Below, piece after piece: positions 43,720-53,530 of a DNA stretch of 64,000 nucleotides. The translations under genes were made by a program, and so were the position numbers. The notes below the pieces were generated by a model. It saw only the letters and a list, made by a program, of their open reading frames with translations. It was not told the origin of the DNA and made no database searches. The stretch is taken from IMG/VR virus record IMGVR_UViG_3300042451_000960. One strand, 5' to 3'. The first letter of the stretch is position 1. Each line of letters opens with the position of its first letter. Source of the DNA: a virus (taxonomy: Duplodnaviria > Caudoviricetes).

Positions 43720-44142
43720 TTAATTTTCTAAGTTTATATTCTCTGTGTACCATTCTAAAATTTCTTCGCCTGCTTTTATATCTCGTAGTGCTATCCCATT
43801 TATATCAATGTTTACATTTTCTATATTAGGGTGTGCTGAATTACAATAACTGAATCCGTGGAATAAGAAATTTAATCCTTTGAATAATCGTATTATCTTA
43901 TATCCACATTCTTCGTTGATAAAATATTTGTGAAGTAAATGTTGCACCGATTTTGGTATTTTATCCAAATCACTATTAGGTACAACATAAATTCCAGTTT
44001 CACCTTCCCAAATTGGAAACACATCTTCACCTTTCTTAATATCTTTGATGGCAAATACACCAACACCGTCTAAAGGTGAAACTGCTATTTCGGTTTTTAT
44101 ATTATTAGCCAAATGATTTATAACTTCTTTAGTAATATCCAT
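43720..44142 (-). CDS. SET-domain protein (putative lysine methyltransferase)
   Basis: S..DGVGVFA.KDIKKGE; N.S..PN; ALRDIKAGEEI...Y. Confidence 0.8.
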   Translation of the reverse strand: MDITKEVINHLANNIKTEIAVSPLDGVGVFAIKDIKKGEDVFPIWEGETGIYVVPNSDLDKIPKSVQHLLHKYFINEECGYKIIRLFKGLNFLFHGFSYCNSAHPNIENVNIDINGIALRDIKAGEEILEWYTENINLEN

Positions 44143-45444
44143 TTAGAATTCTCCATTTCGTTTTACAAGTTCATCAACTCCTATACCATTAGCTATATCC
44201 AACAATACACTTTTTTCTTTCATACAAACTTCCATAGCCATAGCCAATAATTTTTTCTCAATTTCTTTTGGTATAACAACAATACCTTCGTTATCAGCAA
44301 ATACTAAATCACCGGGTAGTATCCTAACACCTTCTATTTGTATTGGAACATTTATTCCATCCAAAGTTGCACGCCTTCTAACATCAATACATTTATTACC
44401 TTTAGCAAATACAGGAAACCCTAATTTCTTTACATCAGCTGAATCTCTAGTAACCCCACCAACAATTGCACCAACCGCACCAGAACGTATTCCTAAGTTA
44501 GCATTTAGTTCACCAAAGTATGCGTAATCTGATATTTCGTTTTCAACAATTATAACATCATTTGGTACTATTGTATTATAACTATGTAATGCATTGTATA
44601 TTCCTTTGTAACTATCACCTTCTTTTAACTTTCGTATCTTCAAAGTTTTAGCTCTACCAAAAATCTTAGCATCAATTATGTTTGGTTGTAATCCGTTTAT
44701 TATAGTTGAATATCCCAAATCATCTAACAAATCCGATAGCATCGAACTATTCAATTGACTTTTTAGGTTATCCAATAAGATTCTATCTTTCTCTCTCAAA
44801 CCAGCTGCTATAAGATTTGCCAATTCAAAATCTTCAGGCCAATTAACATCAATGGCTTCGATTATACTTGCTTTAACTAAAAATGGATTATCACCTATTC
44901 TTCTTTGAGTTTGTATAGCACATTCTTTTTTTACTATGTATAATCCCATAGTTTCAATTGTTGTACTTTCCAAATCAACACTGTTAGGTATATTGTTTAT
45001 ATCATACACAGGCTTACCATCTGTCCACGTATATAATTTTTCATCTCTAACTAAAACAGCCGAATCATATTTGGAATGTACTATTTGATTTATTGCTAAT
45101 TTAATTGTATTGGTTTCTATAAAAGGTGATGTACATAAAATCTGAATGTATATATCGGCATCCACTTGCCTAACTTCATTCATAAATAATTTATTACCAT
45201 CGGTTTTATTATCAGCCAAAGAATGGTCTCTCTTTAATACAAAATGATTTAAATGAGATGCCATACCAATTACCTCATTGGATTCAGTATCTAAATAAAC
45301 TTCGTCTATAATATCACATTGTAAAAGTTTTTCTAATGTATGTAAGAATAGTGGTTTACCATCCAACAATTTTATATTTTTGTTTTCTATTCTTGAACTT
45401 GTTCCCTTTACAGGTAAAAACGCAACTATTTTCATATTAATCAA
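44143..45444 (-). CDS. CMP-nonulosonate synthetase (NeuA-like) fused to RraA/HMG-aldolase-like domain
   Basis: P.KGTSSRIENKNIK.L.GKPL, TSPF, IDVNWPEDF; C-terminal GELN, GVTRD, PGDLVFADNEG. Confidence 0.8.
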   Translation of the reverse strand: MINMKIVAFLPVKGTSSRIENKNIKLLDGKPLFLHTLEKLLQCDIIDEVYLDTESNEVIGMASHLNHFVLKRDHSLADNKTDGNKLFMNEVRQVDADIYIQILCTSPFIETNTIKLAINQIVHSKYDSAVLVRDEKLYTWTDGKPVYDINNIPNSVDLESTTIETMGLYIVKKECAIQTQRRIGDNPFLVKASIIEAIDVNWPEDFELANLIAAGLREKDRILLDNLKSQLNSSMLSDLLDDLGYSTIINGLQPNIIDAKIFGRAKTLKIRKLKEGDSYKGIYNALHSYNTIVPNDVIIVENEISDYAYFGELNANLGIRSGAVGAIVGGVTRDSADVKKLGFPVFAKGNKCIDVRRRATLDGINVPIQIEGVRILPGDLVFADNEGIVVIPKEIEKKLLAMAMEVCMKEKSVLLDIANGIGVDELVKRNGEF

Positions 45445-46036
45445 TTATGTGAATGTTCTTAAAATTAGTTAGTATTCTTTTTTCAAACTCACCATCATGT
45501 TCAACAACATCAGTTCCCATAATTTTTTTCCAAAATTCTTCGTTTGTAAAATCTTTATCGTAGTAATGACCTGATTTTAAGAAAAAATTAAACCCAACTA
45601 AATGTACTTCTTTATTAAAGAACAAAGATAAATTTAATGCTAAAGTTCCTCCCGATGAAAGTCTAAATGTTGGGCTAATCATCAAAGGAAGTGATACATC
45701 CAATAGTTTAGTTCCAGATTGTATATGTATTATATCATCTTTGCTGTTTGGATACTTTGGTGATGTTGTAAATATAGGAACACTACCACTATACTTTATA
45801 TAATTTTTTTCTAAATACTTTGTATGTTTGTGAGAAAAGTCACTGCAATGCAAAGATAATGCAGATATTTTAGTACCTGCATTTTCTTCATGTCCATCCA
45901 ATTGGAAATCATTGAAACGAATTACATATTCATAACTATCTATTATACTTCCCATATTTTTAATATCACCGTTTCCAACAAGTAATACTTTTTGAGGAAT
46001 ACTAATAAATAAGTCTTGAACAGATGAGTAACTCAT
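45437..46036 (-). CDS. GT29 (sialyltransferase)-like glycosyltransferase
   Basis: Sialylmotif-L-like VLLVGNG...IDSY..VIRFN...GTK; SSGG..A; GF.F...HYY. Confidence 0.6.
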   Translation of the reverse strand: MSYSSVQDLFISIPQKVLLVGNGDIKNMGSIIDSYEYVIRFNDFQLDGHEENAGTKISALSLHCSDFSHKHTKYLEKNYIKYSGSVPIFTTSPKYPNSKDDIIHIQSGTKLLDVSLPLMISPTFRLSSGGTLALNLSLFFNKEVHLVGFNFFLKSGHYYDKDFTNEEFWKKIMGTDVVEHDGEFEKRILTNFKNIHIID

Positions 46037-46037
46037 A

Positions 46038-46493
46038 TTATATTTTTACTAAGTGGTCAGCTGCATAAGTTGCAATTGGACCTAATGTTTTATATCGTAC
46101 TTCATACCCCATACCTTCTACCATACCAACTGCTTGTCTGAACACTTCATTTGATTTAAAGCGTGGATCTGGATTCAAATCAATATCAATCCACTTTGGT
46201 TTTGGAATACCAGCTTCTCTTAAATATTCAGCTGCTTCAATTGCATACCAAACTTCGTTTAATAATCTTACTGAACGGGTTGGTTCTCTATCTGCTTTCC
46301 ATCTTCTATAAAGTACATGAGCTCCTTTTCCGTTATGGTACAAAGCCACAACAACGGCATATATTGTTTTATCGGCAAAGTTTTGCGAATCACATCCGAT
46401 AAGAAGTTCAATATTTTCATTGTTTTCAAAATAGTTTTTAACATAAGGGATAAGTTCAAATTCTTCTCTACCATAAAGCTTTTTGTACTTCAT
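46038..46493 (-). CDS. RNase H-like YkuK-family protein
   Basis: IGCDSQ, RL..EV..AI..A, IDLN, ADH. Confidence 0.75.
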   Translation of the reverse strand: MKYKKLYGREEFELIPYVKNYFENNENIELLIGCDSQNFADKTIYAVVVALYHNGKGAHVLYRRWKADREPTRSVRLLNEVWYAIEAAEYLREAGIPKPKWIDIDLNPDPRFKSNEVFRQAVGMVEGMGYEVRYKTLGPIATYAADHLVKI

Positions 46494-46509
46494 AAATTTT
46501 GTTTTTGAG

Positions 46510-46591
46510 TGCCCCATAAGAGACTCGAACTCTTATGCTTCTCAGCACCAGATCCTAAGTCTGGCATGTCTACCAATTCCATCAACGGGGC
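46510..46591 (-). tRNA. tRNA-Leu(TAG)
   Basis: Cloverleaf; anticodon arm ccaga-cttagga-tctgg. Confidence 0.9.
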
Positions 46592-46596
46592 CTTTG

Positions 46597-46743
46597 CTGT
46601 AAGAGATGGATTCGAACCACCATAGTGCGATTCAGTTAGTAACACATTCCTGCAGGATGGTGGTCTACCCCATATTACTAACCTATTTCGTGCTCACCAC
46701 CCCCGAGACAGGAGGGCTTGTCTGCCAATTCCAACACCTTACA
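46597..46743 (-). ncRNA. 147-nt tRNA-like RNA, GUC anticodon, ~75-nt variable arm
   Basis: Acceptor tgtaagg/tcttaca+G; class-II D-loop; ccctc-ctgtctc-ggggg; T-arm ggtgg-ttcgaat-ccatc. Confidence 0.7.
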
Positions 46744-46748
46744 ATGTG

Positions 46749-46833
46749 CAGAGAGTGAGGGATTCGAACCCCCGTTACCTTTCAGTAAAACAGTTTTCAA
46801 GACTGCCGCCATCAACCACTCGGCCAACTCTCT
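46749..46833 (-). tRNA. tRNA-Ser(TGA)
   Basis: gcagt-cttgaaa-actgt; long variable arm; G73. Confidence 0.9.
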
Positions 46834-49404: not shown

Positions 49405-49405
49405 G

Positions 49406-49479
49406 CGGATTGTACGGGACTCGAACCCGTGAACTCCACCGTGACAGGGTGGCATGATAACCAACTTCACCAACAATCC
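49406..49479 (-). tRNA. tRNA-Asp(GTC)
   Basis: ccacc-ctgtcac-ggtgg; G73. Confidence 0.92.
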
Positions 49480-52237: not shown

Positions 52238-52291
52238 TAAGTTGTAATAAAAATTAAGATATGAAACGAACAACTTTTCAGTTGTTAGTAG

Positions 52292-52361
52292 AGCGGTGAA
52301 AGGAATTGAACCTCTCCTTTTCACTGGAATGTGAAATGTGCTACCGTAACACTTACACCGC
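52292..52361 (-). tRNA. Atypical Gly(TCC)-like tRNA with non-7-nt anticodon loop
   Basis: gcggtg/caccgc+U; tttcac-attcca-gtgaaa; T-loop ttcaatt. Confidence 0.55.
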
Positions 52362-52603
52362 ATAAATGGAAAGTTTTTTTGTAAGGTGGGAACTTTCCGA
52401 GCGCTTGCCTAACCACAGGTATCTATCGTGTCAACCATTTTCGTTTAGCCCTATTTGATAAGGGATTAACAGTCAAACTTACAAAAACCAGCCTATACTG
52501 TCTACATTAGTTTTGTTCTTTTAGGTCTACATAACTCTTTATTCTCAATAGGTGAACATTATGTAAAAGAAAGACCACGATAATTCATCTTACAGGATGA
52601 ATT

Positions 52604-53530
52604 TGCTCTCTCTATTGGAATCGAACCAATATACAACCATTGAGAAAGTAAAAACGTTGAGAATACACGTTGGGATAACTAGCTTTAGAAAGATTATTTT
52701 GATTCCTTTCGTTTCCACACCCTTTTGAGATGTACCAGTCAATGCAGGTTAGTAAAGTATAACCACTCTTAAAGTTGTAACTTACTCTCTTACTACTCCC
52801 CTTATTCAATCCTGCCGAACTGATTCAACCTTGCGGGTCTATAAGCTTTTCGTAAAAATCATAACCACCTTGCGGGCGTTTATGGCTGGGAACAACTCCC
52901 AACTATGTATGCACCTTTCGGTCACAACTGATGGACACTTATGCTTTATGTTTAATTATAGTTTTTCAAACCTAAATTGAAAATATAAAGTTTTGGTTTG
53001 TAGATTGATTCAGGTAGCGGTCCATCACCAGCTCCCCCATCTTTTGAACGAGAGAATACTAAACTACCCAATGCGTTATCTCAACGCCATACTTCAAGTC
53101 ATCTTCATTAATAGGGATTGGTGTCCCACATTAAAGGATAGTAACGCCACCACGCGTACACAGTCTTATCTTACGTCCTTTCGGATAGCTTGATTATCAA
53201 GACCACTTTGGTATTGAATCACGCAATAGTAAAAAGGGATTAGCTTTCTATGTCTTACAATAATTCTATGAGTTATTCTTATTGTTCTTCCGAACTCAAC
53301 CGAAGGTTCTACATACCCCCAGTTACCCAAACTCTTCTGCTACAGTGTTACCCTCACATACAAAGCCCAAGTAATATCTCACTTGCCTACTCAAGCTCAT
53401 AACCCTAAACGGATTACAAACCGCAAATCATTTAACCAAATGATTCACTTTATCCTACTTTCGTAGTTTATTTAATGACCATAGGCGGCCATCGTACACT
53501 ATGTAACACAAGGTTACTATGTGTAGTATC
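52604..53530 (-). ncRNA. Large (~0.9 kb) structured ncRNA, GOLLD-like
   Basis: No credible ORF; many GNRA hairpins; within tRNA array; follows promoter and boxA; 3' end is a T-arm/acceptor minihelix. Family identity from recalled resemblance only. Confidence 0.6.

Follow-up and report, generated by a model that had tools for sequence, protein, structure and literature searches.

The 64,000-nt stretch analyzed here, from the IMG/VR virus record IMGVR_UViG_3300042451_000960 (Duplodnaviria; Caudoviricetes) and hereafter called the window, carries on its minus strand, at 46597-46743, an RNA that resembles a tRNA with an Asp anticodon and a giant branched variable arm. Comparison with homologs shows that the gene for this tRNA-like RNA is genuine and conserved, and that it represents, in the phage, a large and apparently undescribed Bacteroidota RNA family that is primarily cellular. 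Judged from its sequence, the RNA combines a Leu-type class II body, a fixed U1-A72/G2-C71/G73 end, and a tRNA-Asp anticodon loop without the hallmarks of decoding, and in cells the gene is coupled to a dedicated AsnC-type regulator. We tentatively favor, with slightly less than even confidence, a reading in which the RNA is matured as a tRNA, recognized by aspartyl-tRNA synthetase (AspRS) and kept off decoding, and in cells is tied to Asp/Asn status via AsnC.

The family was assembled by pattern searches. An exact 25-mer from the arm matched nine IMG/VR contigs, a pattern joining the anticodon loop to the arm core matched 112 IMG/VR stretches, and a pattern with the anticodon left free retrieved at least 119 viral stretches together with cellular Bacteroidota (Runella, Arcicella, Saprospiraceae). 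Matches of the cellular pattern scan were mostly chance matches in GC-rich genomes, and the 21 that passed an acceptor-pairing filter were retained. Representatives of the phage set (57 sequences, at most 93% identical) were aligned, and a covariance model, R1, was built from these 57 homologs. RNAalifold recovered the cloverleaf and the arm helices from the alignment. In the resulting structure of 41 pairs, 97.6% of cells were paired compared with 82.0% in shuffles, compensatory changes on both sides occurred in 29 of the 41 pairs, and none of 500 shuffles reached any of these measures; pairing fell to 42–55% when the partners were slid. The single-sequence fold of the window's copy was unexceptional (z = -1.75, not significant), and the case therefore rests on comparison with homologs. 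A covariance model from homologs was one of the checks that the original prediction, made from the letters of the window, had proposed.

The best non-family matches of model R1 were tRNA-Leu(UAG) and tRNA-Tyr, at ~40–50 bits. ARAGORN did not call the element, Rfam 15 gave no match to any model at the gathering score or at E up to 10, and short cellular members were likewise uncalled by ARAGORN and Rfam. By blastn against 50,697 GenBank phage records, only the tRNA-Ser and tRNA-Leu on either side gave matches. Rfam 15 contains no model of the family, and no description of it was found in the open-access literature searched.

Lake-water metagenomes from many studies contain the phage. Contigs of close relatives, from four freshwater RNA libraries, covered 46545-46727 (6 differences) and 46517-46769, and no joint crossed the arm in those metatranscriptome contigs. 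These transcripts retain the arm, which is also conserved across the family; neither splicing in these contigs nor lack of conservation of the extra segment, two of the outcomes that the original prediction had named as overturning it, was found. For contigs of cellular-type relatives, word depth rose to 239–477 over the D and anticodon arms, and these contigs continued into a cellular-type arm. The expression data are assembled contigs, in which uncovered parts carry no meaning.

Structure of the RNA and its conserved positions

The RNA lies near the end of a 27-gene tRNA array in the window, and its parts and immediate neighbors are as follows.

46597-46743, minus strand: whole tRNA-like RNA gene, 147 nt (U1 = 46743, G73 = 46597), from the sequence parse, model R1 and pattern matches elsewhere
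46737-46743, minus strand: acceptor stem 5' strand UGUAAGG, pairing with 46598-46604 over 7 bp including G7-U66
46718-46734, minus strand: D arm with a 3-bp stem UUG/CAA, whose helix covaries, and an 11-nt loop GAAUUGGCAGA with G18 and G19
46700-46716, minus strand: anticodon arm CCCUC-CUGUCUC-GGGGG, 5-bp stem with one U-G pair; all 5 pairs covary
46622-46699, minus strand: variable region, a 78-nt branched domain, from the alignment fold and covariation
46688-46698, minus strand: 5' side of the arm base, helix V1a GGUG, bulge AGCA and helix V1b CGA; 6 of the 7 V1a and V1b pairs changed on both sides
46673-46682, minus strand: 5' strand of the long helix V2, pairing with 46635-46644; 7 of 10 pairs changed on both sides
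46659-46671, minus strand: element GGGGUAGACCACC, possibly a hairpin GGGG-UAGA-CC(A)CC, invariant in the retrieved phage copies
46648-46657, minus strand: tip hairpin UCC-UGCA-GGA, a perfect palindrome, from the phage-set comparison
46605-46621, minus strand: T arm GGUGG-UUCGAAU-CCAUC; stem tested for covariation, T loop invariant in the phage set
46597-46604, minus strand: acceptor 3' strand UCUUACA and discriminator G73, followed by CAAAG and then tRNA-Leu
46748-46833, minus strand: upstream neighbor tRNA-Ser(UGA), with a 5-nt spacer to the tRNA-like RNA
46509-46591, minus strand: downstream neighbor tRNA-Leu(UAG), 5 nt away, which closes the tRNA array

Every part of the tRNA body named in the original prediction (intact acceptor, class II D loop, 5-bp anticodon stem with the loop CU-GUC-UC, T arm and G73) was found on the minus strand. 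In the acceptor stem, the pairs U1-A72 and G2-C71 are invariant and pairs 3–7 covary, with 5 of the 7 pairs changed on both sides; U8 and G9 follow its 5' strand in the window's copy. The adjacent tRNA-Leu(UAG) has nearly the same D arm. In the anticodon loop, GUC occupies 46707-46709, U37 is at 46706 and C38 at 46705. At the 3' end, G73 and C74 are invariant, and CCA is fully encoded in some relatives.

The giant arm was also described correctly in outline: it measures 78 nt against the ~75 nt predicted, and the 11-bp helix and its two hairpin caps are present, but the prediction had missed the arm's base, in which a 4-nt bulge separates a 4-bp from a 3-bp helix and an internal loop follows. 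The 3' partners of the base are CACU at 46624-46627 (V1a, 4 bp) and UCG at 46628-46630 (V1b, 3 bp). A conserved internal loop (AAUAG at 46683-46687 and UGAA at 46631-46634) flanks V2, and the arm base with this loop is kept in all cellular and phage members. The consensus V2 of the family has 10 bp; in the window's copy the helix has 11 bp, with a U-G pair, and is capped by the two hairpins GGGGUAGACCACC and UCCUGCAGGA. The phage search patterns required GGGGUAGACCACC, which is invariant among the copies retrieved and so gives no covariation signal for its putative hairpin. The cellular consensus of the element is RGGGUNGACCACY, and the element is missing in 26 of 57 unique cellular members.

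Two candidate features of the arm were set aside. An intramolecular codon mimic, in which the GAC of GGGGUAGACC would pair with the anticodon GUC, has both sides invariant and so gives no covariation signal, and the hairpin is not part of the core because of those 26 cellular members that lack it. A hammerhead-like string of relatives, UGAUGAG...CGAAA, reads UGGUGAG in the window, and its bases lie in the covarying V1a and V1b.

The pattern of conservation sets the bases read by AspRS apart from those used in decoding. Positions invariant in the phage set were U1, G2, U8, G9, G18, G19, G34, U35, C36, C38, the T loop and A72-G73. U1-A72 and G73 were each present in all 57 unique cellular members and GUC in 55 of the 57; all 57 phage representatives had U1-A72 as well. 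Position 33 was U, C or G in cellular members and A as well in phage copies; throughout the family, position 37 was U or C only and position 38 always C, giving the loop consensus Y32 N33 G34 U35 C36 Y37 C38. The loop variants CAGUCCC, CCGUCUC and CUGUCCC emerged once the search left the anticodon loop unforced. The bacterial AspRS identity set covers GUC, C38 and G73 (PMC9976931). Five of six AspRS identity positions (G34, U35, C36, C38 and G73) are present in the family and near-invariant. Since the AspRS-read bases are kept, and U33 and purine 37 are not, AspRS probably recognizes the RNA, which probably takes no part in normal decoding.

Two tandem minimal members in the genome G139 (L295:4001-4110 and L295:4223-4331), 109–110 nt long with a short hairpin arm, have the loop CUUUCUC with the anticodon UUC (Glu), keep U1-A72 and G73, and form the sole exception to GUC among the 57 cellular members. 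About one-third of phage members carry a single bulged nucleotide in the T stem, on its 5' strand (GGAUGG or GGAGUG vs. CCUCC; alignment A1, columns 177-194), which is unusual for any tRNA needing EF-Tu binding.

Phage copies have traits of their own. Among 146 of them, 68 lie at most 150 nt after a tRNA, which is tRNA-Ser in 50 of those cases. Neither 1.34 Mb of phage loci nor the window yielded an AsnC-type gene, and no asnB was found in the window's phage record. Of 104 unique sequences with the tip hairpin, 103 have a self-complementary tetraloop (UGCA, GGCC or AAUU), compared with ~6% by chance, and the tip hairpin is missing from cellular members. The palindromic phage tip fits loop-loop or duplex dimerization and probably pairs two molecules. 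An extra hairpin is inserted in the D loop of 67 of 102 unique phage copies; the window's copy is without it and is thus of a reduced phage type. This D-loop hairpin was rejected as a second dimer interface, its loop being palindromic in only 4 of 61.

Cellular distribution and the AsnC-type regulator

In a sample of 151 Bacteroidota genomes drawn evenly, model R1 found the RNA in 15, with a sixteenth copy (G047) cut by a contig end. Within one order, which we take to be Cytophagales because it contains Runella-like loci, 107 of 151 genomes carried it, often in tandem and in up to six copies. Across the family, the RNA is 109–212 nt long, with an arm of 45–150 nt whose distal part varies. The cellular genes stand alone, with TTTG and TAnnTTTG promoter motifs of the Bacteroidetes type, a ~55-nt leader and a 3' terminator hairpin. 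Ordinary tRNA-Asp genes were present in all of the five carriers checked, and in the window a canonical tRNA-Asp(GTC) lies at 49405-49479 within the same 27-gene array. The original prediction had noted this tRNA and reasoned from it that the tRNA-like RNA is not the functional Asp supply, and the cellular carriers bear this out.

Six tandem copies with ~190-nt spacing occur on single chromosomes at G223:C1:3545330-3546434 and G302:C1:3754740-3755848, a tRNA-like gene dosage.

A divergent AsnC-type gene was located 130–300 bp upstream of the RNA in 8 of the 14 loci drawn from the phylum as a whole and in 23 of the 29 from the one order. When the Runella protein was used as a query against the phylum sample, orthologs at 177 bits or more and at least 53% identity were found in 17 genomes, and the next best match scored 150 bits. 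These 17 comprise all 15 RNA-positive genomes, G047, and one genome without detectable RNA. The pair of ortholog and RNA is retained even when unlinked, since the two are on different contigs in six carriers. The regulator scored 152–161 bits against NF008384 (AsnC; cut-off 227) and ~70–86 bits against LrpA, LysM and Lrp, and it aligned end to end with E. coli AsnC (PDB 2cg4); its sequence is closest to genuine AsnC among the characterized subfamilies. Genes downstream of the cellular RNA vary among loci, as do others beyond the pair: the regulator is followed by SufB in only some genomes and by a beta-CASP nuclease in Runella, and in Arcicella hisG lies downstream. The cellular family and its coupling to AsnC were unforeseen by the original prediction and change the picture.

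In E. coli, AsnC is divergent from asnA. In an RNA-negative Bacteroidota genome (G111:C3:381372-382998), a distant AsnC-type gene (41% identity) lies divergently beside an asnB-type gene, which is the classical regulator-synthetase arrangement within the same phylum. asnA was not found in the four genomes with weaker, 150-bit AsnC homologs, nor in G021, whose ortholog scored 193 bits.

Possible functions

From these patterns a working scheme can be proposed. The phage tRNA operon would transcribe the RNA, and tRNA-processing enzymes would excise it, with RNase P making the 5' end and CCA being added. AspRS would recognize it through G34, U35, C36, C38 and G73 and probably aspartylate it. Exclusion of the RNA from routine translation would come from pyrimidine 37, the lack of conservation at position 33 and the 78-nt arm, so that any use of the charged RNA would lie outside decoding, and the conserved arm base could be a handle for a partner. 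In cells, the dedicated AsnC ortholog would govern the gene, and the RNA level would thereby be tied to aspartate-family (Asp/Asn) status. The phage copies would have escaped AsnC control by their location in tRNA arrays and gained the self-complementary tip.

Several observations weigh against this scheme. Its functional steps are all deduced from conservation. G10 is among the determinants of E. coli AspRS, and this position is not conserved in the family, being U, A or G. The invariant G2-C71, G73 and the long arm are also compatible with recognition by seryl-tRNA synthetase (SerRS), and one genome has UUC instead of GUC. With regard to the regulator, one genome holds the AsnC ortholog without detectable RNA, and the co-occurrence is partly confounded by the shared ancestry of the carriers. 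The RNA-library contigs give the presence of the RNA with its arm, not its ends, strand or level, and DNA carry-over is possible.

One alternative, which we regard as improbable, is that the RNA is an unusual working tRNA-Asp isoacceptor for GAY codons, perhaps in special conditions, and that the arm is regulatory or stabilizing. The RNA has the full cloverleaf of a decoding tRNA: besides the 7-bp acceptor there are D, anticodon and T arms and an elbow that is intact (G18, G19 and the T loop), and GUC, G73 and a 3' end compatible with CCA are present. It lies inside phage tRNA arrays, and its cellular genes are tandem and multi-copy, as with tRNAs. However, the window's copy has U37 and the family does not conserve U33, and a variable position 33 and a pyrimidine 37 are both almost unknown in elongator tRNAs. 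The variable region of a decoding tRNA has 4–5 nt (class I) or up to ~24 nt (class II), compared with 78 nt here and an arm of 45–150 nt in the family, the T stem is often bulged, and standard tRNA finders do not recognize the element. A normal tRNA-Asp is always co-present in the phage and the five carriers, and a dedicated AsnC regulator is not a feature of tRNAs. The complete cloverleaf without decoding hallmarks anywhere in the family agrees with the tRNA-scaffolded RNA that had been predicted.

We also think it unlikely that the RNA is a decoy or sponge that titrates an anticodon-loop binder, such as a nuclease cutting at G34-U35, a modification enzyme or AspRS, and that serves the phage in anti-defense. 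Such a role would fit a loop that stays invariant though decoding traits are lost, the abundance of copies in phage tRNA arrays, the high expression of relatives, and the repetition of the motif UGUCUC in the inserted D-loop hairpin of many phage copies. The family is, however, mainly chromosomal, has its own regulator and occupies 71% of one order; U33 of the TGT recognition triplet is not conserved, and no nuclease or defense gene was linked to it at the loci examined. Because the family is cellular, has its own promoter and terminator and is AsnC-coupled, a phage-invented decoy against anticodon nucleases, one of the roles suggested in the original prediction, cannot be the ancestral one.

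A third idea, to which we give little credence, turns on asparagine: a discriminating AspRS would aspartylate the RNA through GUC, C38 and G73 and GatCAB, acting via U1-A72, would amidate the product to give Asn off the ribosome, so that the RNA replaces asnA under AsnC. Under this rather unlikely scheme, the giant arm and the crippled loop would bar the Asn-on-GUC species from EF-Tu and the ribosome; AsnC might, with similarly low probability, switch the RNA gene on when asparagine is short; and an unregulated, dimerizing phage copy could, as doubtfully, sustain the asparagine supply after host shut-off. The invariant U1-A72 is a bacterial GatCAB determinant (PMC1635274; PMC4206432), the GUC/C38/G73 set is retained, and the sole exception to GUC is UUC (Glu), the other GatCAB precursor. 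gatB was present in all RNA-positive genomes searched, and AsnRS and GlnRS were present in five carriers, where GatCAB is therefore dispensable for translation. asnA was absent from 5/5 carriers, and asnB above the cut-off from three of them; the regulator is nearest to genuine AsnC, and the RNA gene would take the place that asnA has in E. coli. Against this, the asnB family was above the cut-off in 13 of 15 RNA-positive genomes compared with 85 of 151 overall, without anticorrelation, and the idea is not supported by the asnB profiles. gatB, present in 126 of 151 genomes, is not discriminating, genomes with AsnRS, GlnRS and GatCAB are already explained by a non-discriminating AspRS acting on tRNA-Asn (PMC4206432), and no enzyme is known to release Asn.

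Very unlikely is an allo-tRNA-like, SerRS-charged RNA for missense insertion or tRNA-dependent Ser conversion: G2-C71 and G73 are invariant on a class II body and GUC is among the predominant allo-tRNA anticodons (PMC5389517), but the architecture is 7/5, not 8/4 or 9/3, a 4-nt bulge breaks the arm after 4 bp, no SelA-like or SepCysS-like neighbor was found among the loci examined, and, since SerRS ignores the anticodon, SerRS charging leaves the invariance of GUC and C38 unexplained.

The decoding tRNA-Asp, the decoy and the SerRS-charged RNA each explain less of the pattern than an AspRS-recognized RNA kept off decoding, which we consider the most economical account of the conservation. The original observation of a tRNA-like RNA with an Asp anticodon and a giant arm holds, and its interpretation is partly supported. 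If the AspRS-based scheme is correct, a whole bacterial order and many phages keep a highly expressed tRNA look-alike in which the handles for a synthetase are kept and decoding is disabled, and an amino-acid-sensing regulator that co-occurs with it probably controls it. This would add a new off-translation tRNA chemistry beside tmRNA, cell-wall and lipid aminoacylation, and tRNA-dependent amino-acid synthesis, and would mean that phage tRNA arrays carry cargo unrelated to codon supply. Because the family occurs in the cultivable Runella limosa DSM 17973 and Arcicella aurantiaca DSM 22214, its charging, partners and phenotype are open to direct experiment; the 78-nt arm, which includes a conserved internal loop, is an attractive structural target.

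Comparison with known systems

The body of the RNA is like that of class II tRNA-Leu (RF00005), with a 3-bp D stem, the long D loop GAAUUGG(U/C)AGA, a long stem-loop variable arm, and a normal T arm and elbow. Unlike tRNA-Leu, it has U1-A72, GUC and G73 in place of the cognate anticodon and A73 of class II Leu and Tyr tRNAs, and its arm is a branched 78-nt domain with a bulge and an internal loop, compared with ~15 nt. With canonical tRNA-Asp(GUC), it has G73 and C38 in common, and its anticodon loop CUGUCUC differs from CUGUCAC at the single position 37; tRNA-Asp itself belongs to class I and has G1-C72, U33 and purine 37, a D stem of 4 bp and a variable loop of 5 nt.

Likeness to tRNA-Asn of the indirect pathway (transamidosome; PMC1635274, PMC4206432) extends to U1-A72 and G73, possible charging by AspRS, and GatCAB in carriers; tRNA-Asn itself is a decoding class I tRNA with the anticodon GUU. 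As for a GatCAB substrate, the tRNA-like RNA has U1-A72, but its carriers are not free of both asnA and asnB, 13 of 15 having the asnB family. The GatCAB antideterminant is a supernumerary D-loop nucleotide, U20A, compared with a Leu-type D loop of 11 nt here.

tRNA mimicry outside normal decoding is also seen in tmRNA and in YrlA, a bacterial Y RNA. The ends of YrlA form a Ro-binding stem. tmRNA contains a tag ORF and pseudoknots and no anticodon arm, whereas the element has a full anticodon arm and receives no tmRNA call from ARAGORN. Some relatives of the tRNA-like RNA lie directly upstream of a phage tmRNA: in phage contigs L003, L008 and L227, a boxA-like GTTCTTTAACA follows the element and then comes the phage tmRNA gene, and ARAGORN called tmRNA in two phage loci carrying the element.

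GOLLD, ROOL and manA are likewise phage-borne structured RNAs near tRNA genes, and they multimerize through loop-loop contacts (bioRxiv 10.1101/2024.12.08.627333, 10.64898/2026.07.01.735769). The tRNA-like RNA has no sequence or structural relation to them, and its putative dimerization is read from the palindromic tip only. A GOLLD RNA (RF02032, 295.9 bits, full model) lies at 52654-53071 (minus strand) of the window, in the same tRNA operon and ~6 kb from the element. Beside it, at 52291-52362 (minus strand), ARAGORN called a tRNA without assigning its type, giving it an anticodon of two bases (tc); this appears to be a second aberrant tRNA-like gene. An S-adenosylmethionine lyase-family gene (PF23780; 54104-54790, minus strand) immediately precedes the tRNA/GOLLD operon. 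Directly downstream of the array, four minus-strand genes follow: an RNase H-like PF04308 gene (46038-46517), a GT29 sialyltransferase-like gene (45437-46036), a gene fusing cytidylyltransferase and RraA/aldolase (44143-45444), and one with a SET domain (43720-44142).

Allo-tRNAs (Mukai et al. 2017, PMC5389517) are, like the present family, non-canonical, with long arms and non-cognate anticodons, GUC being among the commonest. They are defined by 8/4 or 9/3 acceptor/T stems with arms of ordinary length, and the word Bacteroidetes does not occur in the paper (PMC5389517). The family described here differs in its 7/5 architecture, a covariation-supported 7-bp acceptor and 5-bp T stem, and in its arm of 45–150 nt. 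Among published systems, allo-tRNAs come closest to this family.

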